Source: Planctomycetota bacterium | Lineage (GTDB): Bacteria > Planctomycetota > GCA-002687715 > DRQF01 | DNA: 64,000 nucleotides | Assembly: GCA_027001995.1 (NCBI GenBank) | Contig: JALTLO010000197.1 | Span: 14,781-78,780 of the forward strand | Reading direction: 5' to 3' | Shown: positions 13,435 to 31,697 of the stretch, piece by piece | How positions within the stretch are numbered: the first letter of the stretch is position 1 | Layout of the letters: each line of letters opens with the position of its first letter | The notes under the pieces: generated by a model | Seen by the model: the letters and a program-made list of their open reading frames with translations, nothing else | Told to the model about the DNA's origin: nothing | The model's database searches: none | Made by a program: the position numbers and the translations under genes

Positions 13435-16248
13435 ATGAGCGAGTCATTCGAAGAAGAAGTCACCCGAATTGCCAAACGCCTTGAAACCATGCCTCAAGAG
13501 GCGATTGAGGCAGAATTGGACACGATTCACCTGGCAGACAGAGAGCTAGCTGCGGCTCTTCGGGTGCGATTGGATGCGACAACGATGGCAATGGGGGCAT
13601 TTCGAGCAGAAAAAACCGCTCATGGCGGACATGCCCCCACCCATTCCGAGAAAATTCGGCGCCAGACTGATGTGCCTTTAGTGGGAATGGAGATTGGGGG
13701 CTGCAAACTCGAAGGATTGATCGCTGAGGGCGGTATGGGGGCCGTATTTGAGGCTACCCAGCAGCCCATGGGGCGAAAAGTGGCTGTTAAGTTGATGAAG
13801 AATGGTTTGGTTTCTCGGGAAGCCCGGCAACGATTCGACTATGAAGCTAAACTTGTGGCCAATTTGGCTCATCCAGGTGTGGCGCAAGTGTTTGGCTCCG
13901 GCGTCTGCGAGTCGGAGAGGGGTGGCGTTGCCGTTCCTTATATAATCATGGAGCTGGTGGCGGATGCCCGGAGCCTTCGGGAGTTTGTGCGGGAAGAGCA
14001 CCTGGGAGTCAACGAAACCTGTGAACTGTTTGTCCAAGTTTGCGAAGCCGTGTTCTTTGCTCATCAACATGGAATCATCCACCGAGACCTGAAACCGGCG
14101 AATATTCTTGTGGGTGCAGATGGCCGACCGCGAGTGATCGATTTTGGCGTGGCCCATGTTGAAGACGATGCCAACTTAACCCGGTCTTTCGAAACGAACC
14201 CGGGCTCTATTGTTGGGACTTTGCCTTACATGAGTCCGGAGCAAGTTGGAGGGGATGAAGTCGTTGATGTTCGCAGTGACGAATATACGTTGGGTGTTAT
14301 TCTCTACGAACTTCTCTGTGGTTTCAGGCCATACAATTTTGACCAAAAGTCTTTACCCCAGGCCATCGAGGTGATTCGCGGGGTGGCACCACAGCGGCCG
14401 TCGAAATCTGTTCCCTCCCTGGCCGGAGACCTCGATACCATCATCCTGAAGTCCATGCGAAAAGATCGCAAGGATCGCTATCAAACGGTGGATGATTTCG
14501 CCGAAGATATTCGGCGATACTTAGGGGGCTTGCCCATAGAAGCACGCCCAACGACGATGGGCTACCAAGTCCGGTTGTTCACAAGGCGAAATCGTTTGCT
14601 CGTTACTTTGTCTCTCATCTTTGTCGTCGGCCTGATCGTCGCAACGGTTTTTTCGGTAAACCAAGCAATTTCGGCTCGGGAGTCAGAAAATAAGGCTGTA
14701 GCTGCGGCTCGCGAAGCGACTCAGAGTCGCGACATGGCCCGTGATTCCGAAAGCAAGGCCAAAGCCGCAGCACTTGAGGCAACGAGGAGCCGGGACCAAG
14801 CTCTTCGGCTTTTGGCCGAAACAAGGAGCTTAGCTGAGTGGTTGGTGATCGACCTTCTCAATGAAGTGGCGGCGCTACCGGGCAGTACGCCACTGGCAGA
14901 AAAACTCGCAATCAAAGTCGCTGATCATCTGGACACCATGGCTCCTGATGCGGCCTTGGACCCAGAGATGCAGCGAACGATCGCTTTGGCTTACATGGAA
15001 ATCGGGTCGGTCATGGGAACGCCGACTCGCCCGAATCTGGGGAAGCGTAAAGAGGCCCTCGTTCACTTGGCAAAGGCGGAATCTCGTTTTCTCAAACGCT
15101 GGGAGGAAGACCCATCTCCTCGACGAACCATCGATCTCTGTGTAGCCCAATCTCTGTCGGCGGAGATCTTGGATTCTATGGGGGATACGGATGAGGCCAG
15201 AAAGATCTATGAGGTTGGCATGGCTCGCTTACTGGCCATAGAACCCCAGGCAGATCTGAAGCTCAAGCGGGATTCTCTTTTGGCAAGTTTCAAACGAGAC
15301 ATGGCGATGGTATGGGCTAAGGAAGGGAAACCTCAGCAAGCCATCGACGCCCTTCGTGACGTTGTCAAGATGAGGTCAGCAGTCATAGCAGCAGGCAAGA
15401 ACGATGGAAGCCAGAAACGTCAGCTCATCATGGACAAGAACACGTTGGCCCAGCTTCTTGGGCTCAACGGGCAAGCCCAGGAAGCTGAAGCTCTGCTGCG
15501 CGCCACCATGCCGGAAGTTTTGGCTTCTGAAAAGGAGGGGAACATCGCCGCGGAAGATGGGGCTGTGATTCGCTTTCAGCTCGCGGATGCGTTGAGCGTT
15601 CAGAAAGGAAAGGAAAAGGAAGCTTTAGATCTCTTCTTGGAGGTTCTCGCAATCCGCCAGGCATTGTCGGTGGGAGACGAAACGAACATCAGCCGGATGG
15701 AGAGCTTGGCTACGGTGTTGGAACGCTGCAGTACAATGACCGCCATCGTCACGGGAGATAATAGCCGTGCATTCGAGTATGTTGATCGCACGGTCGCCAT
15801 AACGCGGCACATGTTAGAAATCTCTCCGGATTCTTTAGATCATGTCAGTCGCTTGCGGATTTCTCTCGGACGCAAAGCGGGTTTGGCTAACATTCTGAAG
15901 CGCAAGGAAATTGCCTTGGCAGCCTCGGAAGAGAGCTTCGCCATGGCGAAGAAACTCTTCAACGAAATGCCTGACTCTCTGGCTAGCCAACGAGCCATGG
16001 CCGAATCATGGACGCTGAAAGGGCACGTGTTCTTGAATAAACCGGGGCAGGCTGACTCCCTTGAGATGACAATTTCTTGTTATGAGCAGGCTCTTGTGGC
16101 CTTTCAGGAAGGCAATAAGTATCTATTGAAACTCAAAAACTTGGACCCGACGCCGTTTTGGGTGGCACGATCCTTCAAGGCACAGCAACTCTATATTTCT
16201 GCGACCAAAGATGGACTCGCCAATTTGAAGAAACTGATCAACAAATGA
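13435..16248 (+). CDS. Ser/Thr protein kinase with TM segment and C-terminal TPR-like repeat domain
   Basis: Hanks kinase motifs: GxGxxG-like, VAVK, HRDLKPANIL, DFG, SPEQ. A TM helix lies around residue 390. Long alpha-helical repeat tail. Confidence 0.85.
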   Translation: MSESFEEEVTRIAKRLETMPQEAIEAELDTIHLADRELAAALRVRLDATTMAMGAFRAEKTAHGGHAPTHSEKIRRQTDVPLVGMEIGGCKLEGLIAEGGMGAVFEATQQPMGRKVAVKLMKNGLVSREARQRFDYEAKLVANLAHPGVAQVFGSGVCESERGGVAVPYIIMELVADARSLREFVREEHLGVNETCELFVQVCEAVFFAHQHGIIHRDLKPANILVGADGRPRVIDFGVAHVEDDANLTRSFETNPGSIVGTLPYMSPEQVGGDEVVDVRSDEYTLGVILYELLCGFRPYNFDQKSLPQAIEVIRGVAPQRPSKSVPSLAGDLDTIILKSMRKDRKDRYQTVDDFAEDIRRYLGGLPIEARPTTMGYQVRLFTRRNRLLVTLSLIFVVGLIVATVFSVNQAISARESENKAVAAAREATQSRDMARDSESKAKAAALEATRSRDQALRLLAETRSLAEWLVIDLLNEVAALPGSTPLAEKLAIKVADHLDTMAPDAALDPEMQRTIALAYMEIGSVMGTPTRPNLGKRKEALVHLAKAESRFLKRWEEDPSPRRTIDLCVAQSLSAEILDSMGDTDEARKIYEVGMARLLAIEPQADLKLKRDSLLASFKRDMAMVWAKEGKPQQAIDALRDVVKMRSAVIAAGKNDGSQKRQLIMDKNTLAQLLGLNGQAQEAEALLRATMPEVLASEKEGNIAAEDGAVIRFQLADALSVQKGKEKEALDLFLEVLAIRQALSVGDETNISRMESLATVLERCSTMTAIVTGDNSRAFEYVDRTVAITRHMLEISPDSLDHVSRLRISLGRKAGLANILKRKEIALAASEESFAMAKKLFNEMPDSLASQRAMAESWTLKGHVFLNKPGQADSLEMTISCYEQALVAFQEGNKYLLKLKNLDPTPFWVARSFKAQQLYISATKDGLANLKKLINK

Positions 16249-18315: not shown

Positions 18316-19112
18316 TGCGTATTCAGGCAACTCATTCTTCCTTCGGATACGGGGAAGGACCCATCGTCCGAGGTGTTTCCTTGGAGGTTCGAGAGGCAGA
18401 GCTCCTGACCATCGTTGGACCAAACGGAGCTGGCAAAAGTACCCTCATCAAGGGGCTTGCTGGTTTGATTTCTCCCAGCGAAGGGAGGGTTGAGGCCGCA
18501 GGAGAATCTCTTTGTGCCATGGACTTAGGAAAGCGAGCCAAAATGGTTGCTGTTCTCCCTCAGTCTTTGCGACACCTCCAGGGGATTACCGTTGCTGAGT
18601 TTGTGGCGCAAGGTCGATATGTTCATCGACCTTCCTGGCAGCATATGGGAGCAATGGACGAGGAGGTCATTGGACGATCACTTCAGCGATGTGAACTTGG
18701 AGGGCTAAAGGACCGTCCGATGAATCAACTTTCAGGTGGTGAACGTCAACGAGCAGTTTTTGCCAGGGCATTGGCCCAGGAGTCGGATATTCTTTTGGTA
18801 GATGAACCCACTGCCGCTTTGGATGGTCGCCATCAGCTTTGGATTTTCGAACAGTTAGCGTCTTTGGCCGCCAGTTCTACTGCTGTTGTGGCTGTGACCC
18901 ATGATCTTAACTTAGCAAGCCAATTCTCCCATCGGGTGGTCTTGATGGAAGATGGTGCTGTCTCGAAGCAAGGCGACCCGAAAGACGTGCTCACACCTGG
19001 CTATCTCAAAGGGCTTCTGGGTGAGAATTTCTTGACAGGCCAAGAGACGTCTTCCATCTGCCAAGAAGAGAGACCCTGGTTTATCCCTTGGCTTCCTCCA
19101 CCTTCTTCATGA
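18309..19112 (+). CDS. ABC transporter ATP-binding protein (FecE/BtuD-like)
   Basis: Walker A GPNGAGKST, ABC signature LSGGERQR, Walker B LLVDEPTAALD. Confidence 0.85.
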   Translation: MVVRIQATHSSFGYGEGPIVRGVSLEVREAELLTIVGPNGAGKSTLIKGLAGLISPSEGRVEAAGESLCAMDLGKRAKMVAVLPQSLRHLQGITVAEFVAQGRYVHRPSWQHMGAMDEEVIGRSLQRCELGGLKDRPMNQLSGGERQRAVFARALAQESDILLVDEPTAALDGRHQLWIFEQLASLAASSTAVVAVTHDLNLASQFSHRVVLMEDGAVSKQGDPKDVLTPGYLKGLLGENFLTGQETSSICQEERPWFIPWLPPPSS

Positions 19113-20138
19113 TCTTGAGGCCGTTGAAGTTCGGTGAAGGTCGCGGGCCAAAAGCGCGGCGCCGAGAAGTCCAGAATTGGGACTGCGAATAAGCCAAACT
19201 GGGATTTTTTCTAAGAAATCGACAAACCGTCCTTTCGCTTCTAGATTCGAGCGAAACCGTTTGGGGTCAAACGCAGACAATAGGCGAGGGACAATTCCTC
19301 CGCCCACGTAAATACCCCCTGTGGCCATGAGAATCAAAGCCAAGTCACCGGCTACGGCGCCGAGGATGTCGAAAAACGTTGTGATCGACTTTTGGCATAT
19401 GGCATCGTCGCGGTTAAATGCACGATCGCTAATCACCCGCGCTGCATCTTGATGATCGCCATTGACGATAGCTTGGAGCTCTTCGTCAACGTCTGATTCT
19501 TCTAAGTAGGCGCGAACAGTGTAGGCGGTGATAGCGGTCAGCCCGGCCCCAGAAAGAAGCCTTTCGTTAGACACGCGTCCGAAGCGCTCTTGCATGAAGC
19601 TAAACAACCCCACTTCCCAATCAGATCGTGGGGCGAAGCTGGCATGGCCACCTTCTGAGTGTTGAATGCGGTAGCCCCCGGCACATCCTGGGTCGGGCAA
19701 GAGGTAGGCTACTCCCAAGCCGGTGCCAGGGCCCAAAAGCAAAACCGGTCCCCATTCTTTTGCCTTCCCATCCTGGATGGCTAATAGGTCATTGGTCTTG
19801 AGCGCTGGGACGGCCCTGGCCATGGCGGTGAAGTCGTTGACTAAACGAAGTTGCTCGATTCCGGTGACGGCCCGCAGTTCTTCTTCGTCAAGGTTCCACG
19901 GTAAGTTCGTCCCGCGACAAATACCGTCTTGGATTGGCCCTGCTACGCCGATGGCAGCCGCATGAGGGAAGGGGGTTCCGTCCACCTCTGCCTGACGTAG
20001 GAAACCGTGGATGGCGACGCCGCAGTCGGCGGTGTCTTGAGTCGAAAGGACGATCTCTCGGAGGCAGGAGCCGCCTTCGTCGTCGAAAATCGCTAACCGC
20101 AAGTTCGTTCCGCCAATGTCACCGGCCAAAATACTCAT
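19107..20138 (-). CDS. glk: Glucokinase
   Basis: The N-terminal GDIGGTNLRLA motif is typical of the Glk family. The preferred start, MSILAGD (ATG at 20138), overlaps the upstream stop in an ATGA arrangement. The track ORF extends to 20210. Confidence 0.8.
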   Translation of the reverse strand: MSILAGDIGGTNLRLAIFDDEGGSCLREIVLSTQDTADCGVAIHGFLRQAEVDGTPFPHAAAIGVAGPIQDGICRGTNLPWNLDEEELRAVTGIEQLRLVNDFTAMARAVPALKTNDLLAIQDGKAKEWGPVLLLGPGTGLGVAYLLPDPGCAGGYRIQHSEGGHASFAPRSDWEVGLFSFMQERFGRVSNERLLSGAGLTAITAYTVRAYLEESDVDEELQAIVNGDHQDAARVISDRAFNRDDAICQKSITTFFDILGAVAGDLALILMATGGIYVGGGIVPRLLSAFDPKRFRSNLEAKGRFVDFLEKIPVWLIRSPNSGLLGAALLARDLHRTSTASRS

Positions 20139-21271
20139 GACTGCTCCTGTCTGGAATCTCCCAATGGCAGACCACGGGTGGCCTGATCTGGGAGAGTCGG
20201 TTTGCCCCACAAGAAACCTTGGGCGAAGGATACCCCAAGTTCTTCTAGGATTGTTAATTCCTGCCGTTGCTCAACGCCTTCTGCGATCACCCATGCCCCC
20301 AAGGATTCTCCTAATTTGAGGGCGGACGAGACGATGTCTCGTCGAGATTGATGGCGCGCGATGTTGTTGACGACTCGGCGATCAATCTTAAGCACTTCTG
20401 GCTGGAGATCCCTCACTAATCCAAAACCTCGGGCCTGAAATCCGATGTCGTCGATGGCCAAGTTAATCCCTATTTTCTTCAAGTGCCTTCTTTCCTGGGT
20501 GAATTCCCGGTTTGCTGCCGACAAATTGGTTTCGCTGAGTTCAAGGCAGCAATGGTCAGGAAAAAGTTCAGCCATGCGATCTAAGCGTGGTCGAACTTCC
20601 TTTGTTGCCCAAGTTTCTGGAAAAAGGTTGAAATGCAAACACCCACAGCAAGAACTGTGCTGAGCCGCTTCCAAGGCAGCATCCAGACAAGCTAAGTCGA
20701 ATTCTACAAGGCGATCCTTTTCTTTACCCCAACGAAAGAAACGACTCGGTTGGTAAAGGGGGCCTTTGGGCCCGCGACTGAGGAACTCCCAGCCAAAAGT
20801 GGTCATGTCTTGCAATCTCAGGATGGGATGACAGACCGTCTGAAATGTTTCATCAGAGGCGAAAGACTTGAGGAGTTCGTCTATGTTGGGTTTGCCCCGA
20901 GATTTAAGGCGAAGCGTCTCTTTGGCCAGTTCGGGTATCAGCGCCAGATCGTCAGGGTCGTCATGGATGAAGTCAATGGCGCCACGGGCCACGGCTCCAA
21001 TACCTAAGTCTTCCGTTGACGAATCTACCACGGCGATGGCATCAGGACGGTCGACTTGGGACAGGAACTGGAGCATGCCAGCCAAGTCATCCGGTCGATC
21101 AGCAGAGAGCCGAAAGATAACGAGGTCGACTCCCATGAGATCTAAGTCACTCAGGGACTGGCACTGTTTGAGGGTGATTGGGGCCTCGGCTTTGGGTGCC
21201 ATGTGAGGCAGGACACGCTCTTGAAATGCTGGAGGCCCGACCAAGAGAACTGTTGGCAGGTTTTGGGGCAT
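20135..21271 (-). CDS. Degenerate receiver (REC-like) + EAL domain protein (c-di-GMP phosphodiesterase family)
   Basis: EAL-domain motifs: EFLSRG (the EAL position), DDIG, KIDRR, EGVE, QGFLWGKP. The N-terminal CheY-like fold lacks the phospho-acceptor Asp (FRL replaces the usual second Asp). The start is 2 nt after the helicase stop, and an RBS (GAGGTG) sits inside the helicase's 3' end. Confidence 0.7.
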   Translation of the reverse strand: MPQNLPTVLLVGPPAFQERVLPHMAPKAEAPITLKQCQSLSDLDLMGVDLVIFRLSADRPDDLAGMLQFLSQVDRPDAIAVVDSSTEDLGIGAVARGAIDFIHDDPDDLALIPELAKETLRLKSRGKPNIDELLKSFASDETFQTVCHPILRLQDMTTFGWEFLSRGPKGPLYQPSRFFRWGKEKDRLVEFDLACLDAALEAAQHSSCCGCLHFNLFPETWATKEVRPRLDRMAELFPDHCCLELSETNLSAANREFTQERRHLKKIGINLAIDDIGFQARGFGLVRDLQPEVLKIDRRVVNNIARHQSRRDIVSSALKLGESLGAWVIAEGVEQRQELTILEELGVSFAQGFLWGKPTLPDQATRGLPLGDSRQEQS

Positions 21272-21273
21272 TC

Positions 21274-24200
21274 TTACACCTCGTCCTGTTTTGGAGTTTG
21301 TCGGGGCAGGCGAACTTGTCCGTCGTCGAGGATTCCCCAGCCCTTGGTCAAGATTTCTTCGATGCCCTTGTCCATGGCGGCTTTCACCTTTGAGCCCAAA
21401 CGTGGAAAGCCTAACATTCTCGCGGTTTCTTTTGGTAGGTCAGTGAGGGGAAGGGCGATCTGTTCTTCCATGACCCGTTTGCAGGCGTTGGCAATTTCTA
21501 TGGGATGAATGTCATCGGCTTGCCGTGGGATCTCACCCAAGGCCGCAGTGCGAAATTTCCGGTAGTTGCTGGGTTCATCATCACCTAAGAAATAGACGCC
21601 GTCAAAGATCTTAGGTTTTTCTCCCTCCGGCAGTTCGGCGATTAAAGTTGTGACACGGTTGCGCACACGGCTGGTGAGTCGGTCAATACCCAAGGTTGTC
21701 ATCAACCGTCGACACACGAGATTCAGTGACACAGGCGACTCTTGCACAAGAATTGAAGTGATGACTTGCCGCACCGCGTCTTCTTGATTTTCGTCGTAGA
21801 GAGCTTCAGCGCCCAGGTTGCTCTTGGGGATCACTGTTGGCCGATATATCTCCACGGCCTCCACCAATTTGAGCTTGAGATGCTCTCCTTCCTCATCGTC
21901 TGTTATTGAGGCGCTGTTCTCTTCCGCTTCCAATTCGTTCGCAAGTTCTTGCTCTTCCGTAAGTGGCGGGGGAGAATCACTCTTCTCGACGAGTTTGGCT
22001 TCGATCGCTTCTAAGACGCGCTCTGGATCCTGCAACCAGTCACCGCTCCATACTCGGCAAAGCTCCCACCCCAGCCCTTTCAGAACATTGGGGCGAATAC
22101 GGTCGCGATCCCGGGCATTGGCGGAGTCGCTATAGTTGCTGCCGTCGCATTCAATCCCCAAGATGAAGGTATCGGCATTGTCTGGATCATGAATGGCCAA
22201 GTCGATGGGCTGGGAGGAAGAACCGACATGTAAGGATACCTTGTAACCTCGTTCCCGCAGGCGTTTGGCAATGGCTTCGTTGAGTGGAGATTCGGCTTCC
22301 CGCAAACCACGTTGGCCCAAATTCGAAGGCAGGGCGACGTGACCACGGTCGGCGTATTCCAAGAATGACTTCAGGTGCGCCACGCCTAAGGCCCGACTTC
22401 GCGAGAGATCAATTTGTTCGTGGCGTAAGGTAGAGAAAACTCGCAGTTCTTTTCTTGCCCTGGTGATCGCGACATTGAGACGACGTTCTCCCCCTTCCCG
22501 ATTCAGTGGCCCAAAGTTCATGGACACGCGACCGTCGGCATCAGGACCGTAGCAGATTGAGAACAGGATGATGTCTCTTTCGTCACCTTGGACATTTTCT
22601 AAGTTCTTAACGAAAACGGCTTCGGCGACATCTTCGCCGAAGAAAGACTCGATTTCTGGGTGCTCTCTGCGGGCTTCATCCAAGTAGTCTTCAATGCAGT
22701 TTTGTTGTGCTTGACTGAAAGCGACGATGCCGATGGTGTCCTGGCTCAACTGAGGATCGGTCAGGCGGCGAAGAACATCGCTGACAACAGCTTTGGCTTC
22801 ATTTTTGTTAGTTCTGGTCTTCGCTCGGTCGTAGTGGGCGTCTTCAACTTGGACGAAGTGGACGCCCATGTGGTTATTCGTATCTCCCGGGGAAGGGAAA
22901 GTCATGAGACGGTTATTGTAGTAGTGATGGTTGCTAAAGGAGATGAGGTCTTCGTGTCGAGATCGGTAGTGCCAAGAGAGGTTGAGGGAGGTGAATCCTC
23001 CGGCCTCGCATTCGTCTAAGATGCTCTCAACTTCTTCTACCATGTCGCTATCTGGGTCATCGTCTTCGTCATCTTGGGTGCGAAAGAAACTGGTCGGGGG
23101 AAGTTGTTTCGAGTCGCCCACAATGACGGCGGATTCCCCCCGGGCCAGGGCGCCGATTGCGTCCCATACCGGGATTTGCGAGGCTTCATCGAAGACTACG
23201 ATGTCAGCGCGAGGGTAGTCGGTGCTCAAGTATTGGGCGACGCTTAAGGGGCTCATGAGGAGACAGGGCTTTAGGCGAGGGAGTAGGTCCGGTAGGGATT
23301 CAAACAACCGACGAATCGGCATATGGCGGCGCTTGAGTTTGAGCTGCCGCTGGAGAATACCAACTTCTGACTTGGCCGATGCCTCTTTCGAGAAACCTGG
23401 AAGGTTGGCATTGATGCGTGACTTGATCACCTCTGAACTAAGGGAGATCATCTTTTGGTCCAAGGCAGCAAATGCTGCGATCTTACGCTCATGCTCTAAA
23501 CTGTTGAAGCGTCGCAAGAGGAGGGAGTCCTCCAATTGCTGATTGAGCCAGTCTTCCAAGAGGCTTTTCTTGAAGACCTTGAGAGCATTTTCTCCTGCCA
23601 ATGAACCATCGCCCAAACTTTTCCCTAGTTCTTCTAAGCCTTTCTCTTGAGCTCTTGCCATCAAGTGTGACCAATGGCACCAATCTCGCAGATCTCTTCT
23701 GCCGTCGAGGAGGTTGTCGAGAGTTTTCCCCAGACGGTCGAAATATCCCTCGTCGTTTTCTGACCCAAAGGCCGCAAGTTTGTCGAAATGGACAATGTTA
23801 TCGAGGGCCTCCAAGCGATGATCTAATTGGAGGAGATCGTTCAAGAAGGTGTCCATGTCTTGACGCAGAGAAGATGGACCAATAAGTTGGTCACTGTCTT
23901 CAACTGCAAGTCTGATTGCCCGTTCACGAAAACCGCCAGCGACCCAGTCAGCGTTGTGGCTGAGTTGAGCTAATTCCTGACGGAAGGATTCGGCCCAGGC
24001 AATGATCTCTTGTAGTTTCTGCCAGTCGCTCCTGGCCCCTCGCCAATGATGACCGAAGAATCGCTTTTCTTGGTCGCAAATCTCTGCCAGCTGGCGTTCT
24101 TCTTCTCTTAGTTTTTGGATGCGTCCTAAGTCGAGGACCAGGGTGTCCGTGTCCGCCAGAGAACCTCTTACGAAGGGTTTGAGTGCTCTTTTGGTGAGGA

Positions 24201-27200
24201 AGACTCGAATCCAGGAGAGGGGTGGGAATGAGGAACGGGCCTTCTGCAAAGAAGTGAGCCATGACGTGACATCTGTGGCCAGAAGCTCATCTAAGTATCG
24301 TCTCTCCAATTCCATTCGGAGATCGGCCAGTTGGCGACCTCGATCCAATGAAGGTTTTAGACTCTCTTTGATTCCTTCCCATCCAGGTTCGGTCAGTAGA
24401 TCGCGGCTACTGCCAGGGTTTTCTAAGAGCAAGGCGAAAAGACGCCTCAAGCCGTCAAGCTGGCCACGGGAGTCTGTTTCGACGTTCTCTGGTAATCCGA
24501 GCTCTTCGCCAATGGCAATGCGACTTCGGCTAAGATCCTTTTTTGACTTTTGTGCGGCTCGAACGGCTTGGTCAATATGGTCGGCTAGCTTGGGGCTCCA
24601 ATCGCTGACTTGAATCGAATGCAACAAATGGTCATTCACGGGGGCGACCATCTTGGCAGCTGTTCCTAATGAACCGGCTAACTCTCCTAATTCATCGACT
24701 TCGCTCCGGTGGATTTCATGAACGTGGGCGAGATTCAATTGGACGCGTGGCAAGTCGCCCATGTTGGCTAGTCTTGAGGTGGCTTGAAAGATGCTGAGGC
24801 CCGGGGGTCTTCGAGAATGAATCTCTTGGACATAGTCGTTGAGGTCTTTTCTACGGTCCGTGAGTTCTTCTGCTAACTCTTCCCATTCTCCTGTACTTTT
24901 GTGGGCTGTGGCGGTCATTGCTGTCTGAAGTTGATCTAAGACATGGCGTTTGCTGGTTTTCTTAGAGTGGAGCTCTAAACAACTGGACGCCAGGCCGATC
25001 TTGCTTAAGCGATCGTGAACCACGTTGAGGGCAGCCATTTTCTCTGCCACGAAAAGGACACGTTTTCCCCTCGATAGGCAATGAGCAATGAGGTTGGTGA
25101 TCGTTTGAGACTTTCCCGTTCCTGGGGGGCCTTGCAGTACGAAGGTATGACCTTGGGCCGCCGCTATAACGGCGCTCAGCTGGGATGAGTCAGCGTCCAT
25201 GGGGCAAAGATTTTCGCCAGCAGGCAGGATCTTGTCTAGTTCAGAAGCTTGAGGGTAAACAACGTTACCCTCGAATGCCGAGCCTGGGGTTTCGACCAAA
25301 TGACGTACGACTTTGCTATTGAGAAGAGAATCTTGATGGCTCTCCAAGTCTGCCCACATGAGAAACTTATTAAAGGAGAATAACCCCAGGGCACAGTTGT
25401 TGACCACGTCCCAGCGTGGCACATCCATGATGACCTTTCTGAAGTTCTTCAGAGCAAGGTCGATGTCGACGCCGTTTTCATCTTCGGGGAGCGTCTTCAG
25501 GTGATCGGTATCCAAGCCGAAGTCTTGCTTCAACTTCTCCAATAAGGTGGTATTGATGCGCGCATCCTCGTCGCCTCGCTGAAGGCGGAATCCCTCGCGG
25601 ATGCTCTTGCGCGTCAAGTGCATGGGCAAGAGAATAATGGGTGCCAATCGTTCCAGGTTGCTGCTTTCGTTTTCTTTCCAGGACAAGAATCCCAAAGCCA
25701 AGAAGAGCGTGTTGGAGCCCGTCTCTTCCAACTCGTTACGGCTGGCTCGATACAGATCCAGCAATTTGCCGTCGAGATTTTTTTCGTCGGTGTCAACATG
25801 GACGATGCGGTTGTTCAGGTCTTCAGCCAGAATCGATACTTTACTGTCTTCATGAAGGCGATCTTTCTGAATAGTCATGTCGCGGGGTGAATTGGCTATT
25901 TGCTCGCCAGGGCGCCCGCGGAGGGTGAAGGAGACGCCACCTTCCACGGCATCTTCGAACCCTCCCAAGTCGGGAATTAAGAGAGGAATATTCTTCTTGG
26001 TTGGGCGGAAATTGAGAAGACGGTTGCGGAGGGACAAGTCCAAGAGTTTTCTTTGCCATCGACGAATGCGGCTGTCTTCCTCAGGCGCTTGTTGTTCGAC
26101 AGTTGGGGCTTCGATTGCCTGAAGGGGCACGATGGTGGTGGCATCTTCGACTTCAGCTCCCAGGGTGGCCAAGTCTTCAGGAGATATCCTTGTTGTGGTG
26201 ACGCCGAAATATTCTCCCTCGCTTTCGAATTCTTGCGAGGCTTGGGGTAGTGGGCGAATCTTGAGCTTGCGGGCTCTGCGGATGTCAATGACAGCGCAAA
26301 AGTCGTCTCCGTTGTCCAGGTGTTTCCTGCCATCACTTCTGGCAACATGAAAGGGAACTAAAGGTCGATTGGCCAGTAAGGTGGACTCGAAGACAACAAT
26401 GTCTTCAACGTCGATTCGCTTGCGCAAAGAAGTCACGTCATCGATTGTTGGTTCTGGGAAACAGTGATCGCTGACCCAAGCTCCACAAAAGGCATGACCT
26501 TTGGTCAAGACGATAATGGGGTTGAGGCCGCATTGTTCCATGACACTGGCAGCGAGGAGGGAAAGGTCCAGGCAATTGCCAACTTTGTCTTGGAGAATCA
26601 CGTCCGGAAAACGGACCTTTTGGCCGTCATCTTCAAAGCTGGCTGGCACGCCCACATAACCCAAATCTTCTCGGGCCAGAGTTTCATAAATGGATCGAAT
26701 CTGTTCGATCACGCCGTTGGGGTCACCGCTTTGGTAGCCATCCAAGATCGGAATGGACTGACGCTCTTCGTGAGTGCGGACGGTCTTTCCGATGAGTGCA
26801 TTGACCCCTCGGCTGTTCGGAAGAACAAAGGCTGCTAAGACTTCCGGGAGAGTGCTAAGACCGGGCCATTCATTAAATGCCAAGACTTCAACGGGGAATC
26901 CCTTCACGGAAGGGCTCTTGCCACGAGCCGAAACAGTTACTTCTAATTCGGTTTCTTGACGTTCGGATTGCTCTTTCAGACGATCGACGTTGAGAGGCAA
27001 ACTGATGTGCTCGAGGTTGATTTCTTCTTCTGGGGCGATTCGATCCAGGCGAATGTGAAGTTCTTCTGAGAGGCCGCTACCCAATTGAATGGCGATCGTG
27101 ACATCGTCCAAGGCCTCTGAAGAGTTGACCAAGTTGAGGCGCTTCACCACCGGAACATCGTTTTGTTGCATGGCGAAATTGACCAAACGGTCGTAATCCA

Positions 27201-27354
27201 AATGGAGCTCAACAGTGGTAGGGGGCAATTCTGGGGTGGTTTCTTCCCTATTTTCCTCTAAGTCACTTGTTTGATCTGCTTGAATCGAGGAATTCACCCT
27301 ATCCCCATCTTCATTTGAGCTATTTTCGCCGATTTTGCTGTCCTGGTCTGCCAT
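21274..27354 (-). CDS. Hhe-like giant superfamily-1 (Upf1-like) helicase-nuclease: N-terminal transglutaminase-like domain, DUF4011, AAA_11/AAA_12 helicase, Vsr/DUF559-like endonuclease fold, DUF3320 tail
   Basis: Walker A GPPGTGKSQT. AAA_12 motifs SWHYRSRHEDLISFSN and VAITRARKEL. An REase-like block (ILGIECDGSNYSDSANARDRDRIRPNVLKGLGWELCRVW). N-terminal papain-like block GNCLDLSLLAASVMEQCGLNPIIVLTKGHAFCGAW. Confidence 0.75.
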   Translation of the reverse strand: MADQDSKIGENSSNEDGDRVNSSIQADQTSDLEENREETTPELPPTTVELHLDYDRLVNFAMQQNDVPVVKRLNLVNSSEALDDVTIAIQLGSGLSEELHIRLDRIAPEEEINLEHISLPLNVDRLKEQSERQETELEVTVSARGKSPSVKGFPVEVLAFNEWPGLSTLPEVLAAFVLPNSRGVNALIGKTVRTHEERQSIPILDGYQSGDPNGVIEQIRSIYETLAREDLGYVGVPASFEDDGQKVRFPDVILQDKVGNCLDLSLLAASVMEQCGLNPIIVLTKGHAFCGAWVSDHCFPEPTIDDVTSLRKRIDVEDIVVFESTLLANRPLVPFHVARSDGRKHLDNGDDFCAVIDIRRARKLKIRPLPQASQEFESEGEYFGVTTTRISPEDLATLGAEVEDATTIVPLQAIEAPTVEQQAPEEDSRIRRWQRKLLDLSLRNRLLNFRPTKKNIPLLIPDLGGFEDAVEGGVSFTLRGRPGEQIANSPRDMTIQKDRLHEDSKVSILAEDLNNRIVHVDTDEKNLDGKLLDLYRASRNELEETGSNTLFLALGFLSWKENESSNLERLAPIILLPMHLTRKSIREGFRLQRGDEDARINTTLLEKLKQDFGLDTDHLKTLPEDENGVDIDLALKNFRKVIMDVPRWDVVNNCALGLFSFNKFLMWADLESHQDSLLNSKVVRHLVETPGSAFEGNVVYPQASELDKILPAGENLCPMDADSSQLSAVIAAAQGHTFVLQGPPGTGKSQTITNLIAHCLSRGKRVLFVAEKMAALNVVHDRLSKIGLASSCLELHSKKTSKRHVLDQLQTAMTATAHKSTGEWEELAEELTDRRKDLNDYVQEIHSRRPPGLSIFQATSRLANMGDLPRVQLNLAHVHEIHRSEVDELGELAGSLGTAAKMVAPVNDHLLHSIQVSDWSPKLADHIDQAVRAAQKSKKDLSRSRIAIGEELGLPENVETDSRGQLDGLRRLFALLLENPGSSRDLLTEPGWEGIKESLKPSLDRGRQLADLRMELERRYLDELLATDVTSWLTSLQKARSSFPPLSWIRVFLTKRALKPFVRGSLADTDTLVLDLGRIQKLREEERQLAEICDQEKRFFGHHWRGARSDWQKLQEIIAWAESFRQELAQLSHNADWVAGGFRERAIRLAVEDSDQLIGPSSLRQDMDTFLNDLLQLDHRLEALDNIVHFDKLAAFGSENDEGYFDRLGKTLDNLLDGRRDLRDWCHWSHLMARAQEKGLEELGKSLGDGSLAGENALKVFKKSLLEDWLNQQLEDSLLLRRFNSLEHERKIAAFAALDQKMISLSSEVIKSRINANLPGFSKEASAKSEVGILQRQLKLKRRHMPIRRLFESLPDLLPRLKPCLLMSPLSVAQYLSTDYPRADIVVFDEASQIPVWDAIGALARGESAVIVGDSKQLPPTSFFRTQDDEDDDPDSDMVEEVESILDECEAGGFTSLNLSWHYRSRHEDLISFSNHHYYNNRLMTFPSPGDTNNHMGVHFVQVEDAHYDRAKTRTNKNEAKAVVSDVLRRLTDPQLSQDTIGIVAFSQAQQNCIEDYLDEARREHPEIESFFGEDVAEAVFVKNLENVQGDERDIILFSICYGPDADGRVSMNFGPLNREGGERRLNVAITRARKELRVFSTLRHEQIDLSRSRALGVAHLKSFLEYADRGHVALPSNLGQRGLREAESPLNEAIAKRLRERGYKVSLHVGSSSQPIDLAIHDPDNADTFILGIECDGSNYSDSANARDRDRIRPNVLKGLGWELCRVWSGDWLQDPERVLEAIEAKLVEKSDSPPPLTEEQELANELEAEENSASITDDEEGEHLKLKLVEAVEIYRPTVIPKSNLGAEALYDENQEDAVRQVITSILVQESPVSLNLVCRRLMTTLGIDRLTSRVRNRVTTLIAELPEGEKPKIFDGVYFLGDDEPSNYRKFRTAALGEIPRQADDIHPIEIANACKRVMEEQIALPLTDLPKETARMLGFPRLGSKVKAAMDKGIEEILTKGWGILDDGQVRLPRQTPKQDEV

Positions 27355-27602
27355 GAGTCAAAAAGCTCTCTCTTATCTCTCGTTTCGCTATGGTTCACGT
27401 ACCTTGGAGGCATGGATACGATTCGCAATTTCTCGCGCCTTTATACTATTTGTCCCCGAATAAGGCCTGGGGGGAGGCGCCCTCTCACTCTACCGTTCTA
27501 AAGCCTTTGGCCAAGATGCCTTAAAGCTTGAGAAAATACCCCGCAATTTCGGCCAGTTTTCTTAGTATAGAGTCCCGTCATCAAACTTTGGAAATACTTG
27601 CT

Positions 27603-30600
27603 ATGACCACAGATAAACCCAAGAAATCAGCACTCGGCCGCATCATGCGGGCTGTCTTGCTTCTCATTCTTCTCGTCGCCGTTCTCGTGGCCCTGGCTCC
27701 CACACTTTTCTCTGGTTTTATCCAAGGAAAGATCGTTGAAGCCATGGAGGAGAGTCTCGATGCCAAAGTCACCATGGAGGATTTTTCTTTCGGGTGGATG
27801 AGCGGCAGCCAAATCGAAGGATTTACGATGACCCGGCCGGGAGAATCGGAGCCTTGCTTGTCCGTTGGCAAGGTGACGACCGCCCCAAGTTTGAGTGATA
27901 TCTTGGCGTCCCGCTTTATCGTTGAGGACATCGTCGCAGAAAATGTGACTGTGAGAATCAAACGAAACGAAACAGGGGTCGATTGGCAAGACATTGCCAA
28001 GGGGCCGAAGAAGAAGGGAGAGAAGACCGGATCCGAATCTACTGAGATTCCAGATTTCTTGGTCAGAGCTCGCGTCAACAACCTTCGTATCGTCTATTCG
28101 GACATCAAATTGGATCGAGCCCTCGATTTCCCAGGAATGAACGTTTCTTTGGAGGCTTCTCGAGGTGCTGACCTGAAGGTAAAAGTCACGGGACCATCTG
28201 GTCTTGACTGTGACCTAAAGTGCCAGTTGTTTGATGGCGATCGCTTGCTTCCCAATGACAAAATAACAGCCACAGGAACTTTGTCCTGGAGCGATCTGCA
28301 ACTCTTCGATTACCAACCACATCTGGGTCAATACCTGAGTGGTCTTTCCGGCACAGTGAACACCCACTATAACCTGAACTACGGCCCTCAAGGTGCTACT
28401 CGGGTAAGCGGTAAGACACAGTGGCAAGGCCTCGTGGCAAAAACCTCTGCTGGCGGCGTGGCTTCGACTTCGGGAACGATTGACAACACTGTCCTCATGG
28501 CTGAGGGGCAGCCCCCGGTCGTCGAAGCTCTCATCAATCTCAGCGACGTTGAGATTGTCGGAATGCCCAATCAAAAGAAGGCAGTTCCATGCGGCACAGG
28601 GGTGGTGAATGTCAAGATGGCGGGGGACCTACTGACTTTGAGCCAATGTGAAGTTGCTGTCCCTGGTGGGAAATTCTCTCTCAGCGGTGACTATGCCATG
28701 GGAGATCAACCCAGTCGTGGCATGCGTTTGGACGCAAACACAGATTTGTCCATTTGGTCAACTTACTTCGAAGGCATCCCAGATTTGGGTGGCAAAGTCC
28801 AGGTTGGTGGGCTTATTCCTGGTGACATGACTCGAAACCCTATTGATCTCAAGGTTTTAGTCGATGCTCTCAAGTTGACCGGTGGCCCCCTGGGAGAGAA
28901 ATCCTACAATTGCGGCAAGACCACTTTCGACCTTCAATTGACACAGCCCCAAACCCCCGAAGGTTCTCAAGACATCATTGTCAAGAGTCGAAGCCGCATG
29001 TGGCAAGTTGATCTGAATTCATCTTTGCGAAGCAAAGCGAGTGCAGCATTCGGAATGCTCGGACAAGCAAAGATCAAGGGTAATTGTGACATGGAGCAAT
29101 TCTTGGCGCCGTTCACCGACTCTCGGGGGCAAGGTCGGGTGAGTTTCGATTTCTTGGCTGGTCTCGAGGAGGACAAAGTCCAAATCCAGAACGCCACGGT
29201 TCGAGGACCTGGGGCCACGGCTCAGTTCTCTGGGCAAGTTGGCCGTCGGGCTGATGGTTGGGGCTTCATGTTCGATGGCAAGGATGTCACCTACCAACGG
29301 GGAGATGGAATCGGGATCGTTATGCCCAAGCTCTTGGGGCGGGGCACCTGGAATGAGAAATCCCATGCTGTTCAAGGGCGGATCTCTATCGACGATGTTC
29401 GCACTGTTGGTGGACAAAGGGCGACCATGAAGGGCGGAGCAGTCCTGGTTGACTTTGACGGTTCTGTGGATCAGGAGAAGGGACGATACCAGATCAATTT
29501 TGGTCGCTTGAACTTGGCTGGTTTTCAGGGCAAAGGCGGTATTGACTATGCCAAGGACACGGGGCTGGGAAAGCTGAGTATCGTAGGAGAGGCTGACTAT
29601 GCTGAGCTGAGCTCTCGTTGGTTAAGGCTCTACGATCCCCAAGCCACAGGGCAGGGTAAAGGCCCGGTTGTTCTTGAAATCGACCCGAAAGGAGGCAACT
29701 GGAGCCAAGCTTCTGGGCGACTTGATCTCCAAGTTCCAGGTTTGAAATCCCAAGGTTTCGATTTGGCCGATCTCGTTATCAAGGGGACTATGAATAATGG
29801 CAAAGGCAAGATCACCCAGGGTGGGGGCCGACTTAATGACGGCACGGTGAAACTCACCGGTGATGTTGACTTCACTGGGGAAAACATGGTGTTCAATACG
29901 AATGCCGAAATGAAAGGCGTGAGGCTGGTGAAAGAGTGGCAACCTGCTATCGCCCGTGTGATTCCTCTTTTTGCAGGTATCGGCGTCACGGCGGAAGGAG
30001 TCATCAATATGAATCTGACGGCGGATGGTGTTGGCGATACCTGGGACTCAATCAAACCCCGATTGAATGGTGATGGCAGCTTGGGGCTTGGTAACGGCCG
30101 CATTGTTGGTTCGCCAATTCTCAGGACTTTTGGTTTGGCCTTGGGTTTCGACCCGAACATGTCGATTCGGGATATCAACAGTGCCTTCCAAATCAAGAAT
30201 GGTGGAGTTCACCAAGAAGGCTTGTTGGCTGACTTCGGCACATTCCAGATGAAGATGGGTGGAATTACTTACTTGGATGGAAGGTTGGATTATGACGTTG
30301 GTTTTAAGCCCGTGTCTCAGAACCCAAGCAATTGGCAGCGTTTCGCATCTTTGGTTGCCAACGATGGCTTCTTGCCCCTGAAGCTCCGGGGGACTGTTGA
30401 TTCCCCGAAGCCTGGTCTTCCGGATCCAGCCAAGCTGATAGAAGCTGGGGCGAGAAAGCTCCTCGGGGATGGCATTGGTAACCTACTTGGGGGTGATAAG
30501 AAGAAGAACGGGAAGAGCCAGGGGATTGGCGGTATTTTGAAAGGCCTCGGCGGTAATAAGAGTAAGTCAAAAGATGACCCCAAGAAAAAGAATGCTTCGG

Positions 30601-30842
30601 ACCCTCTTCAAGGGCTGCTGCAGGGATTGGGTGGCAATAAGAAGAAATCCAAGGACGATGCCAAGAAGAAAGCTTCCGACCCCCTTCAAGGACTGCTGCG
30701 AGGATTGGGCGGCAAGAAGAAACAGAAACCAAACGATAAGAAGAACAAGAAGAACAAAGAAAAGAAGCAACGTCCCAAGGGCTTAGGTGGCCTCCTGCAA
30801 GGTTTGGGCGGAAGCCGCAATCAGAACGACGGCCACCGTTGA
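27603..30842 (+). CDS. AsmA/TamB-like giant envelope protein with lysine-rich repetitive C-terminus
   Basis: N-terminal TM anchor (AVLLLILLVAVLVALAP), then ~1000 aa of beta-rich periplasmic sequence. The C-terminal 90 aa contain imperfect GLGGNKKKSKDD..KKK.ASDPLQGLL repeats. The track start is 27528; the internal Met at 27603 is preferred. Confidence 0.45.
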   Translation: MTTDKPKKSALGRIMRAVLLLILLVAVLVALAPTLFSGFIQGKIVEAMEESLDAKVTMEDFSFGWMSGSQIEGFTMTRPGESEPCLSVGKVTTAPSLSDILASRFIVEDIVAENVTVRIKRNETGVDWQDIAKGPKKKGEKTGSESTEIPDFLVRARVNNLRIVYSDIKLDRALDFPGMNVSLEASRGADLKVKVTGPSGLDCDLKCQLFDGDRLLPNDKITATGTLSWSDLQLFDYQPHLGQYLSGLSGTVNTHYNLNYGPQGATRVSGKTQWQGLVAKTSAGGVASTSGTIDNTVLMAEGQPPVVEALINLSDVEIVGMPNQKKAVPCGTGVVNVKMAGDLLTLSQCEVAVPGGKFSLSGDYAMGDQPSRGMRLDANTDLSIWSTYFEGIPDLGGKVQVGGLIPGDMTRNPIDLKVLVDALKLTGGPLGEKSYNCGKTTFDLQLTQPQTPEGSQDIIVKSRSRMWQVDLNSSLRSKASAAFGMLGQAKIKGNCDMEQFLAPFTDSRGQGRVSFDFLAGLEEDKVQIQNATVRGPGATAQFSGQVGRRADGWGFMFDGKDVTYQRGDGIGIVMPKLLGRGTWNEKSHAVQGRISIDDVRTVGGQRATMKGGAVLVDFDGSVDQEKGRYQINFGRLNLAGFQGKGGIDYAKDTGLGKLSIVGEADYAELSSRWLRLYDPQATGQGKGPVVLEIDPKGGNWSQASGRLDLQVPGLKSQGFDLADLVIKGTMNNGKGKITQGGGRLNDGTVKLTGDVDFTGENMVFNTNAEMKGVRLVKEWQPAIARVIPLFAGIGVTAEGVINMNLTADGVGDTWDSIKPRLNGDGSLGLGNGRIVGSPILRTFGLALGFDPNMSIRDINSAFQIKNGGVHQEGLLADFGTFQMKMGGITYLDGRLDYDVGFKPVSQNPSNWQRFASLVANDGFLPLKLRGTVDSPKPGLPDPAKLIEAGARKLLGDGIGNLLGGDKKKNGKSQGIGGILKGLGGNKSKSKDDPKKKNASDPLQGLLQGLGGNKKKSKDDAKKKASDPLQGLLRGLGGKKKQKPNDKKNKKNKEKKQRPKGLGGLLQGLGGSRNQNDGHR
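30541..30830. repeat. Imperfect ~80-nt tandem repeats (about 3 copies) encoding K-rich GLGGNK..DPLQGLL units at the C-terminus of CDS 27603..30842
   Basis: Direct reading of the DNA and of the translation. Confidence 0.6.
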
Positions 30843-30851
30843 GGTCCATTC

Positions 30852-31697
30852 TTGAGGCTCACAACCACAAATCATGATCGCGATTTCTCTGGTATGCGCT
30901 ATGTCTATCCAGTGATATCACGGCGCGCGCAAGGTGTGTCCATTGGCATCAACCTGAATCCCAACAAAGCCTGCAATTGGCGCTGTGTCTATTGCCAAGT
31001 CGCAGATCTAAAAAGGGGAGCAGGCCCCACCATCGACTTGGATCTTCTCCAAGACGAACTCTCAAGTCTTCTCGATGCCGTTGTTCGGGGCGATTTCATG
31101 GAAACCCATGTCCCAGAAGAAGCCCGCGTCTTGAAGGACATCGCTTTTTCTGGGGATGGCGAATCAACCAGTTCACCTCAGTTTCTTGAATCATTGGAAA
31201 AAGTGGCAAACTTGTTGGACCGTTTCGGCCTTAAAGGAAAAATCAATGTTGTGTTGATTACCAATGGCTCCCTGGTTCAGAAACCTGAGGTACAAAAAGG
31301 CCTTCGGGTGCTTTCTGATCTGGGAGGCGAGGTTTGGTTTAAGCTCGACCGGGGAAGCTCTGAGGCCATAAAGGAAGTCAACGGGGCAGTCATAGATATC
31401 GACCGTCACCTCGTCAATCTGGAAACCACAGCTCGCCGGGTACCCACCTGGATTCAAACCTGCATGTTTGCCAAAGACGGCCAACCTCCCACCGAAGAAG
31501 AGATCGATGACTATCTTTGTATCCTTGGCAACCTGATTCTTGCTGAGGTGTCGGTGCAAGGTGTTTTGCTCTATGGAATGGCCCGCCCACCTATGCTTCC
31601 AGAAGGGACAAGGCTCTCTCAGTTGGAGAGCAAATGGCTCGAGAATCTGGGAGGGCGCATTCGCGCCCTCGGCTTACAGGTTCGCGTTTCAGCCTGA
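30852..31697 (+). CDS. Radical SAM domain protein
   Basis: CNWRCVYC (CX3CX2C) cluster motif near the N-terminus, then a glycine-rich SAM-binding-like segment. The start is 10 nt after the AsmA-like stop. Confidence 0.6.
   Translation: MRLTTTNHDRDFSGMRYVYPVISRRAQGVSIGINLNPNKACNWRCVYCQVADLKRGAGPTIDLDLLQDELSSLLDAVVRGDFMETHVPEEARVLKDIAFSGDGESTSSPQFLESLEKVANLLDRFGLKGKINVVLITNGSLVQKPEVQKGLRVLSDLGGEVWFKLDRGSSEAIKEVNGAVIDIDRHLVNLETTARRVPTWIQTCMFAKDGQPPTEEEIDDYLCILGNLILAEVSVQGVLLYGMARPPMLPEGTRLSQLESKWLENLGGRIRALGLQVRVSA

Follow-up and report, generated by a model that had tools for sequence, protein, structure and literature searches.

A planctomycete ProA-family helicase-nuclease whose EAL-domain operon neighbor is probably incidental

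A gene for a giant helicase-nuclease in a planctomycete abuts a gene for a pseudo-receiver and EAL protein, which in turn overlaps glk. Could this be an anti-phage or DNA-surveillance enzyme that is wired to c-di-GMP, or are its operon neighbors incidental? We analyzed the 64-kb stretch of DNA that contains these genes (the window). We think it likely that the helicase-nuclease gene is a chromosomal, vertically inherited ProA with two co-transcribed passengers, the pseudo-receiver/EAL gene and glk. The genes and their junctions are:

21274..27354, minus strand: helicase-nuclease gene, ProA family (2026 aa plus TAA; from the open reading frame, NF058533, and PDC-S37)
21269..21276, minus strand: junction of helicase stop and EAL start (TAA-GA-ATG, 2-nt spacer; direct sequence reading)
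20135..21271, minus strand: pseudo-receiver plus EAL gene (378 aa)
20135..20138, minus strand: overlap of EAL stop and glk start (ATGA; direct sequence reading)
19107..20138, minus strand: glucokinase gene glk (343 aa from ATG)

All three genes are co-oriented on the minus strand and abut tightly, and the original prediction described their junctions correctly. Between the TAA of the helicase gene (21274-21276) and the ATG of the EAL gene lie only the two nucleotides GA. A putative ribosome-binding site of the EAL gene, GAGGTG, lies within the 3' end of the helicase gene, with 5 nt between it and this ATG. The EAL gene also overlaps the start of glk as ATGA, and this overlap recurs in two related loci (L001 and L083). 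The product of glk matches Pfam Glucokinase (E 7e-94) and TIGR00749 (266 bits, which is above the cut-off).

What is the 2026-aa protein? From its N terminus, it contains:

26884..27222, minus strand: N-terminal beta-sandwich domain (aa 45-157; all-beta in AlphaFold2, with pLDDT >90 over most of it)
26245..26862, minus strand: transglutaminase-like (papain-fold) core (aa 165-370)
25531..26049, minus strand: DUF4011 domain (aa 436-608; Pfam PF13195, E 2e-43)
22435..25191, minus strand: Upf1-like SF1 helicase core (AAA_11 aa 722-846 and AAA_12 aa 1455-1640; Pfam, above cut-off)
21991..22278, minus strand: Vsr-like PD-(D/E)xK nuclease, MTES_1575/DUF559 (aa 1693-1788; Pfam PF18741, E 1e-27)
21658..21804, minus strand: DUF3320 tail (aa 1851-1899; Pfam PF11784, E 6.5e-8, above cut-off)

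The order of DUF4011, SF1 helicase, Vsr-like nuclease, and DUF3320, which had been proposed from the sequence, is borne out by Pfam, DUF4011 included. The helicase core is split, with an insert of about 500 aa between AAA_11 and AAA_12. Every enzymatic module of the protein holds its predicted catalytic motifs, including Walker A (GPPGTGKS, nt 25108-25131) and Walker B (FDEASQ, nt 23176-23193) in the helicase core and IECDG and GWELCRVWS in the nuclease domain.

This protein had been described as Hhe-like, which is right for its architecture but not for its family. Like Hhe, it has DUF4011, a Upf1-like AAA_11/AAA_12 helicase with a long insert, and an MTES_1575/DUF559 nuclease. It is about 36% identical to the Hhe of a Klebsiella plasmid over the helicase and nuclease cores, and the nuclease region (aa 1693-1788) is 36% identical to its counterpart. 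But we rejected assignment to Hhe proper (NCBIfam NF042953), given a score of 854.8 bits against a cut-off of 2000 and partial coverage. Instead, the protein matches the NCBIfam equivalog NF058533 ("anti-phage protein ProA") from end to end, with 2067.9 bits against a cut-off of 1500 and with aa 59-1985 aligned to positions 1-1903 of the 1903 in the model. It also matches the PADLOC single-gene candidate PDC-S37, which has no obligatory partner, over nearly the full model (1365.4 bits; aa 428-2004 on positions 8-1535 of 1550). In the Klebsiella plasmid Hhe, DUF4011 begins at aa 30 and is not preceded by an enzymatic module. Residue 434 of our protein aligns with residue 28 of Hhe, and the 430 extra N-terminal residues carry the beta-sandwich and transglutaminase-like module that Hhe lacks. 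ProA, in contrast, has the same architecture as our protein, from the beta-sandwich and transglutaminase-like N terminus through to DUF3320, and ProA/PDC-S37 is a single gene without a conserved partner, as here.

Five diverse homologs, one of them from a Klebsiella IncF plasmid, also exceed the cut-off for ProA. At least 2523 protein clusters match our protein at E < 1e-100, and most of the best 120 clusters cover about 97% of it, from about residue 53. The transglutaminase-like N terminus is the norm for the ProA family and not a peculiarity of this protein. Judging by its sequence, the 2026-aa protein is a typical representative of a family of helicase-nucleases that is already catalogued and has a putative role against phage. 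The supposed Hhe with its added transglutaminase domain belongs to ProA/PDC-S37, for which curated models already exist, and in this respect our work is mainly clean-up. Because a literature search did not turn up the primary paper from which the NCBIfam model has its name "ProA," the anti-phage role of the family rests on the label of this model and on the candidate status of PDC-S37 in PADLOC.

Is the N-terminal module an enzyme? The original prediction had suggested a papain-fold, transglutaminase-like Cys/His core in the N-terminal block, and this has held up. When we ran a structure prediction, the block was modeled with confidence as a transglutaminase-like fold: it is papain-like, with the Cys at the N terminus of a helix and the His and Asp/Glu on the strands that follow. 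The candidate triad is Cys261 (nt 26572-26574), His287 (26494-26496), and Glu323 (26386-26388); the first two lie in the peptide GNCLDLS...GHAFCGAW (aa 259-293, nt 26476-26580). In Foldseek, the beta-sandwich at aa 45-157 is aligned with the sandwich that TG2, TG3, and factor XIII have at their N termini. These animal proteins are counted among the related papain-fold enzymes, along with PDB 3kd4 (BDI_1141), LapG (4fgo), PNGase (2f4o), TglA (9crn), and PeiW (8jx4). In comparison to these transglutaminase-like enzymes, the sequence similarity of our module is below threshold, and, unlike them, it is fused to a helicase-nuclease. Specifically, our protein does not reach the gathering score of Pfam PF01841 (Transglut_core), with 11.9 bits against 23; homolog P0031 scores 19.4 bits against the same threshold.

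This sub-threshold score, together with the appearance of Rad4, XPC, and protein 4.2 among the structural matches of the block, might suggest that it is an inactive scaffold with a transglutaminase fold that binds protein or DNA, as in Rad4/XPC or protein 4.2. On the other hand, in 42 of 42 homologs whose overall identity is only about 30-40%, neither Cys261 nor His287 varies and an acidic residue, Asp or Glu, occupies position 323, a degree of conservation that functional catalytic triads usually show. We consider the scaffold unlikely, and given the sequence and the structural model, the N-terminal module of ProA is probably a catalytic transglutaminase-like Cys-His-acidic domain. The putative catalytic Cys261 would then be a concrete handle for studies of the mechanism of this family.

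Compared to other ProA genes, only the context of this one differs: it is a stably inherited chromosomal gene, arranged as if in an operon with the EAL gene and glk, and not a gene on a plasmid or in a defense island. Although a defense island or a prophage nearby had been considered, neither was found within the 64-kb window, in which we saw no mobile-element, prophage, or defense genes and no tRNA genes. The Pfam families that are listed for the window are housekeeping planctomycete families, and for the window's 32 other proteins, the PADLOC matches that are listed are all of the generic Ser/Thr-kinase kind. The helicase gene has a fixed position between the rSAM/DUF748 genes and the ABC transporter genes in relatives with as little as 46% identity, and it has diverged about as much as its neighbors have (rSAM 56-63%, FecCD 59-76%, ABC 43-60%). 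In this planctomycete lineage, the helicase gene acts like a core gene, with a fixed locus among housekeeping genes.

A gene that behaves in this way could instead encode a core factor for DNA repair or quality control that is not primarily immune. For example, a cysteine protease, a helicase, and a nuclease might together remove protein-DNA adducts or stalled complexes. The fixed position, the neighbor-like divergence, and the surrounding 64 kb without mobile-element, prophage, or defense genes would all fit, as would the structural match to Rad4/XPC, which is a DNA-damage sensor with a transglutaminase fold. Also, a large DUF4011 gene is reported to be a core gene in every isolate of P. aeruginosa (PMC10250203). 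But the family has a curated anti-phage name and a candidate model in PADLOC, and its homologs are common on conjugative plasmids. The N-terminal module is present on 79 plasmids, and on one conjugative Klebsiella plasmid, the neighborhood of the ProA gene includes IS elements and an AbiJ-NTD4 gene. Some chromosomal homologs adjoin Gabija, PDC-S02, PDC-S06, or DRT genes.

Hhe, the sister family, has been used in experiments as an anti-phage system. It consists of a single helicase-nuclease gene, and its candidate triggers in T7 lie in a cluster of DNA-metabolism genes (10.1101/2024.10.10.617714). Expression of gene g40 from phage Bas63 is toxic only in cells with hhe (bioRxiv 10.1101/2024.10.10.617714). 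Finally, core defense genes exist, so stable inheritance is compatible with immunity. We therefore doubt that ProA in this lineage is primarily a housekeeping enzyme. Its long residence at a housekeeping locus in planctomycetes does bear on whether the family is purely immune or also has a role in genome maintenance.

If this gene is a ProA with an immune role, as we favor, then by analogy to Hhe and other helicase-nucleases that act in defense, the ATP-driven helicase may load onto or track along DNA that is abnormal or foreign (for example, intermediates of replication or recombination), and it would deliver the fused nuclease, which would cut that DNA. We speculate that the transglutaminase-like module could be a sensor or regulator of the cysteine protease, isopeptidase, or transglutaminase type. 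Possible roles are the processing of a protein from phage or host, or the gating of the nuclease.

Where does this leave the EAL gene? The original prediction proposed that the helicase is coupled to a c-di-GMP protein, and it also offered the alternative that the operon neighbors are incidental. If the coupling were functional, then the pseudo-receiver might dock on ProA, with c-di-GMP being lowered when ProA is activated, or the expression or activity of ProA might respond to c-di-GMP. The junctions might seem to encourage this idea: a 2-nt spacer or an overlapping stop and start separates the helicase and EAL genes in the window, L081, L001, and L083, and the junctions from the helicase gene through the EAL gene to glk are kept in all members of the clade in which both genes are covered. 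Furthermore, the close orthologs of the EAL protein that we found (56-93% identity) all come from this planctomycete clade, and wherever there is enough flanking sequence, they are all at this locus and abut the helicase gene.

However, the pairing is not conserved beyond this clade, an outcome that the original prediction had itself named as counting against the coupling. Using a profile HMM, we found an EAL open reading frame within 10 kb of the helicase gene in just 2 of 80 homologous loci, and tblastn agreed. Both of these loci are from the closest relatives, in the same clade, and neither method found an EAL open reading frame within 10 kb at the other 78 ProA loci. Synteny of the EAL gene with the helicase gene is confined to the immediate clade (L001, L002, L081, and L083), in which the helicase is 60-93% identical (L083 covers just the 3' end of the helicase gene, with 77% identity over 208 aa). 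A block of eight genes is fully collinear across the clade, so the adjacency of the helicase and EAL genes is explained by descent. In the next relative (L085, with 46% identity for the helicase), the helicase gene has the same flanks as in the window, namely rSAM and DUF748 on one side and ABC, FecCD, PBP, and STK on the other, but the slot downstream of it contains a Na/Pi cotransporter, PPK2, and CHAD. This phosphate/polyphosphate cassette is unrelated, and its first gene, too, overlaps the end of the helicase gene (ATGA), so an overlap of stop and start is not informative about partnership at this locus. If operon structure counted as evidence, glk would be a partner too.

More broadly, we did not find a conserved partner for ProA. 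When we clustered the neighbors from 59 loci, no family was common to more than 5 loci, and when 91 downstream genes were tallied by Pfam family, none of the families exceeded 4 genes and EAL appeared once. Incidental neighbors are the better-supported reading, given the 2 of 80 loci and the cassette in L085. The link between the helicase and EAL genes seems to be a chance outcome of gene order and not a new signaling-linked defense system, and the EAL gene is probably incidental to the helicase. It is very unlikely that ProA recruited a dedicated pseudo-receiver/EAL protein as a functional partner in this clade, with immunity or DNA surveillance wired to c-di-GMP. (If it were so, the phosphodiesterase might be released or activated once ProA is active and thereby change the c-di-GMP state of the cell, or c-di-GMP might gate ProA.) Rather, the slot 3' of the helicase gene would be variable, with the pseudo-receiver/EAL gene and glk as its co-transcribed passengers here, and the EAL protein would serve the clade's own c-di-GMP and carbohydrate physiology.

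The EAL protein itself had been described as a receiver without a phospho-acceptor that is fused to an EAL domain. The EAL domain (aa 134-358) is confirmed, with 123.7 bits against a threshold of 31.3 for Pfam EAL (E 1e-35). The catalytic set that is well established for RocR- and YkuI-type EAL domains (ExLxR, N, ExxE, DD, K, E, E, Q) is complete: in alignments, E162, R166, N215, E244, E247, D274, D275, K295, E334, and Q351 are invariant and E331 is nearly so. From these residues, the protein is probably an active c-di-GMP phosphodiesterase. An intact EAL domain is also what a partner of ProA might need, but PADLOC has no model that matches this protein, and its NCBIfam scores are far under every equivalog cut-off.

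Support for the receiver is marginal. A profile of five orthologs matches CheY across the entire domain, about aa 6-104 (E 0.011-0.02), Pfam Response_reg is not among the matches at E <= 0.01 for the 378-aa protein, and the AlphaFold model of the N-terminal part has low confidence (pLDDT 30-69). The missing phospho-acceptor does stand. In the alignment to CheY, the REC-like region lacks the phospho-acceptor Asp, the acidic pair, and the conserved Lys: Arg54 is at the position of the phospho-acceptor, G/P is at the DD pair, and Asp is at the Lys. Because all of these are replaced, this region cannot be phosphorylated. The invariant FRL motif of the pseudo-receiver suggests a conserved role other than phosphorylation, such as protein binding, which would also suit a partner of ProA. 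The arrangement of a putative CheY-like domain followed by EAL would be the same as in the response-regulator phosphodiesterases of the PvrR, RocR, and VieA class, but here the receiver lacks the acidic pocket and the sequence past the DD motif is divergent (DDIGFQARGFG).

The 2026-aa helicase-nuclease is a regular member of a family that already has a curated model. It matches the NCBIfam equivalog NF058533 ("anti-phage protein ProA") at 2067.9 bits, given a cut-off of 1500 bits, and residues 59-1985 align to model positions 1-1903. The original prediction described the protein as Hhe-like, and its domains are indeed Hhe-like, but it scores only 854.8 bits against the Hhe model (NF042953), which is under the cut-off of 2000 bits. 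PADLOC's models agree, with 1365 bits for PDC-S37 versus 608 bits for Hhe. So the protein belongs to ProA (PDC-S37), a sister family of Hhe. These are its Pfam domains, by residue:

aa 436-608, DUF4011
aa 722-846, AAA_11
aa 1455-1640, AAA_12
aa 1693-1788, MTES_1575/DUF559 nuclease
aa 1851-1899, DUF3320

Besides this domain content, we observe intact motifs: Walker A (GPPGTGKS), Walker B (FDEASQ), and GDSKQLPP in the helicase, and IECDG and GWELCRVWS in the nuclease. Hhe from a Klebsiella IncF plasmid is about 36% identical to our query over the helicase and nuclease cores. However, DUF4011 starts at residue 30 of Hhe, and Hhe's residue 28 pairs with residue 434 of the query. What sets the two families apart is a 430-residue N-terminal extension of ProA. 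We searched the literature for the origin of the names ProA and PDC-S37, and for DUF4011/DUF3320 together with transglutaminase, and found no description of ProA.

Part of the extension was predicted to be a transglutaminase-like Cys/His core, and we agree. Residues 1-435 match 49 database proteins, most of which continue into DUF4011 and one of which NCBI names "transglutaminase-like domain-containing protein." All 42 sequences that we aligned have Cys261 and His287, and each has either Asp or Glu at position 323 (within VFEST). An AlphaFold2 model built from this alignment (mean pLDDT 84.6) places a beta-sandwich (aa 45-157) ahead of an alpha/beta core (aa 165-370), and Foldseek matches it to TG2, TG3, factor XIII, protein 4.2, and the putative protease 3kd4 in the PDB. 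Because Pfam's Transglut_core is below threshold on the N terminus alone (11.9 bits in the query, 19.4 bits in one homolog), the claim about the fold rests on structure prediction and conservation. On that basis, the predicted fold and the conserved triad are well supported, and we infer that the module is probably catalytically active. In gene calls, the module also occurs with other partners: P0014 continues into HflX-type GTPase domains, and P0049, a weak match, has an FHA domain. These two proteins may be genuine fusions of another kind, or their genes may have been mis-called.

The original prediction also treated the N-terminal block as something extra, and here we disagree: a transglutaminase-like N terminus is the norm in the ProA family. 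At E < 1e-100, the full-length protein has matches in at least 2523 protein clusters; among the best 120 of these, the majority cover about 97% of the query, starting around residue 53, so they include the module. Homologs are found in lineages including Planctomycetota, Armatimonadota, Geobacter, Methylococcaceae, and Opitutia, and all five homologs that we tested, from different lineages and with a Klebsiella plasmid copy among them, pass the ProA cut-off. The module is also encoded on 79 plasmids. Hosts of plasmid genes that pass the NCBIfam cut-off include Klebsiella, Raoultella, Acinetobacter, Rhizobium, and Paracoccus, and the plasmid records label these genes merely as "DUF3320 domain-containing protein." For example, the Klebsiella variicola IncF conjugative plasmid pLY161 carries a ProA-family gene (L084:11965-17856) with IS1 and IS110 elements and an AbiJ-NTD4 gene in its neighborhood.

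What might ProA do? Hhe is a single helicase-nuclease gene whose candidate triggers in T7 lie in a cluster of DNA-metabolism genes, and expressing gene g40 of phage Bas63 is toxic only in hhe cells (bioRxiv 10.1101/2024.10.10.617714). By analogy with Hhe, the SF1 helicase of ProA would act on DNA intermediates that are aberrant or foreign, and these would be cut by the Vsr-like nuclease. The transglutaminase-like Cys-His-acidic module might have a sensing or regulatory part, through proteolysis, isopeptidase activity, or transamidation. Elsewhere, some ProA loci (as judged from the downstream genes of L001-L080, the loci that we sampled for the module) adjoin defense genes, namely a complete GajA and GajB (Gabija) pair, PDC-S02, PDC-S06, a DRT-type reverse transcriptase-helicase, and HerA. 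These neighbors fit a defense role for the family in other lineages. A less likely alternative is that, in planctomycetes, the gene has a role in genome maintenance: its inheritance there is stable and core-like, and a large DUF4011 gene is likewise reported to be core in P. aeruginosa (PMC10250203). As a check, we looked for a prophage or a defense island around the gene, and there is none within the 64-kb window.

In the window, the helicase gene is the first of three co-oriented genes (19107-27354):

21274-27354, minus strand, helicase (ProA), 2026 aa
20135-21271, minus strand, EAL protein, 378 aa
19107-20138, minus strand, glk (glucokinase), 343 aa counted from its ATG

This arrangement is as tight as was predicted. 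Two nucleotides (GA) separate the helicase's TAA from the ATG of the EAL gene, GAGGTG lies 5 nt upstream of this ATG, and the EAL gene's TGA overlaps the ATG of glk as ATGA. In a listing of longest ORFs, glk opens at a GTG (20210); the Glucokinase profile begins at residue 4 when the protein is read from the ATG, and an ortholog is called with the same 343 aa. GC content varies little over the region (about 0.52-0.54), and there are no tRNA genes in the window. A scan for promoters and terminators (18.8-27.8 kb) gave the counts expected from shuffled sequence and was uninformative.

The EAL protein was predicted to combine a receiver lacking the phospho-acceptor with an EAL domain. The EAL domain is clear (Pfam E = 1e-35). 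Its catalytic residues (E162, R166, N215, E244, E247, D274, D275, K295, E331, E334, and Q351) are invariant or nearly so, so by sequence the protein is probably an active phosphodiesterase; the sequence beyond the DD motif, DDIGFQARGFG, is unusual. The receiver fold is marginal: the first 104 residues match CheY across the whole receiver domain with E = 0.011-0.02 from a five-sequence profile, or 0.14 from the single sequence, and AlphaFold models the EAL domain well and the N-terminal domain with low confidence. In the CheY alignment, the positions of the phospho-acceptor Asp, the acidic pair, and the conserved Lys are taken by Arg54, Gly/Pro, and Asp, respectively. An FRL motif is invariant among five orthologs. 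Thus, a pseudo-receiver is likely, short of proof.

The original prediction suggested that the helicase and the EAL protein could form a functional module, unless their genes proved not to be neighbors in related genomes. From a locus search with an alignment of 8 close sequences, we obtained 80 genomic loci that encode the N-terminal module, of which 59 have a helicase ORF of over 1500 aa; in about 50, the downstream DNA extends for 1.3 kb or more. Both tblastn with the window's EAL and Glk proteins and an EAL-domain profile run against all 5075 ORFs of these loci found only L001 and L002, which are the two closest relatives (helicase about 60% identical). Among the first two downstream genes (91 proteins), the most common Pfam family occurs at most four times and EAL occurs once, and clustering three neighbors per side at 59 loci yielded no conserved partner gene ("ProB"). 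In a collection of 5.8 billion proteins, the EAL protein's only close orthologs are P0050 (93%), P0051 (77%), and P0052 (56%), the last from the same 18,308-base contig as L002; an additional ortholog is in L001 (55%). All of the orthologs with enough flanking DNA lie between the helicase and glk. The genomes of this clade share a collinear block (radical SAM, DUF748, helicase, EAL, glk, ABC, FecCD, and PBP) in which the identities of the neighboring genes, 52-76%, bracket the helicase's 60%.

The decisive comparison is with L085 (GCA_020639295.1), whose helicase is 46% identical. Its flanks are those of the window's clade, both upstream (CarboxypepD_reg, radical SAM, and DUF748) and downstream (ABC, FecCD, PBP, and a Ser/Thr kinase), which implies that the helicase has long occupied this place in the chromosome. 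However, the slot that corresponds to EAL-glk (window 19107-21271) is filled by a phosphate/polyphosphate cassette (L085:14144-18348), which encodes a Na/Pi cotransporter, PPK2, and a CHAD protein. So the slot is variable and accepts metabolic cassettes. The cotransporter's ATG overlaps the helicase's stop as ATGA, so a stop/start overlap with the helicase arises whichever gene fills the slot. By the standard that the original prediction set for itself, these comparisons refute a functional helicase-EAL module. An EAL-glk operon with proA is undescribed, and it is most economically explained as a lineage-specific gene order. Even a link between ProA and c-di-GMP that is confined to this clade seems to us very improbable.

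A divergently transcribed gene for a DUF748/AsmA-like giant protein and a radical-SAM gene (window 27528-31697, plus strand) are kept beside the helicase in L001, L002, L081, and L085. The core DUF4011 gene of P. aeruginosa also adjoins a radical-SAM gene (PMC10250203); this shared adjacency may be a coincidence. The remaining 32 sizeable ORFs of the window code for housekeeping proteins of kinds typical for planctomycetes (among them DUF1501, PSCyt2/PSD1, ferrochelatase, MsrA, M24 and M28 peptidases, molybdopterin oxidoreductases, and Ser/Thr kinases), and what PADLOC lists for them are generic hits to kinases. Three Ser/Thr kinases (window 13435-16248 and two further ORFs) match many PD-T4-6, mad6, and MkoA models, with E values down to 1e-78. 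These are generic matches to kinase domains in a kinase-rich planctomycete genome and give no evidence of defense systems.

Finally, the window's helicase protein was already public (P0096; GCA_015485455.1). Between the NCBI copy of the locus (WFTN01000216.1) and window 20270-28354, the only difference is one 1-nt gap; in that copy, the EAL gene is called as two pieces (263 aa and 115 aa). An ENA scaffold is identical to the window. The split probably stems from an error in assembly or consensus and does not mark a pseudogene.
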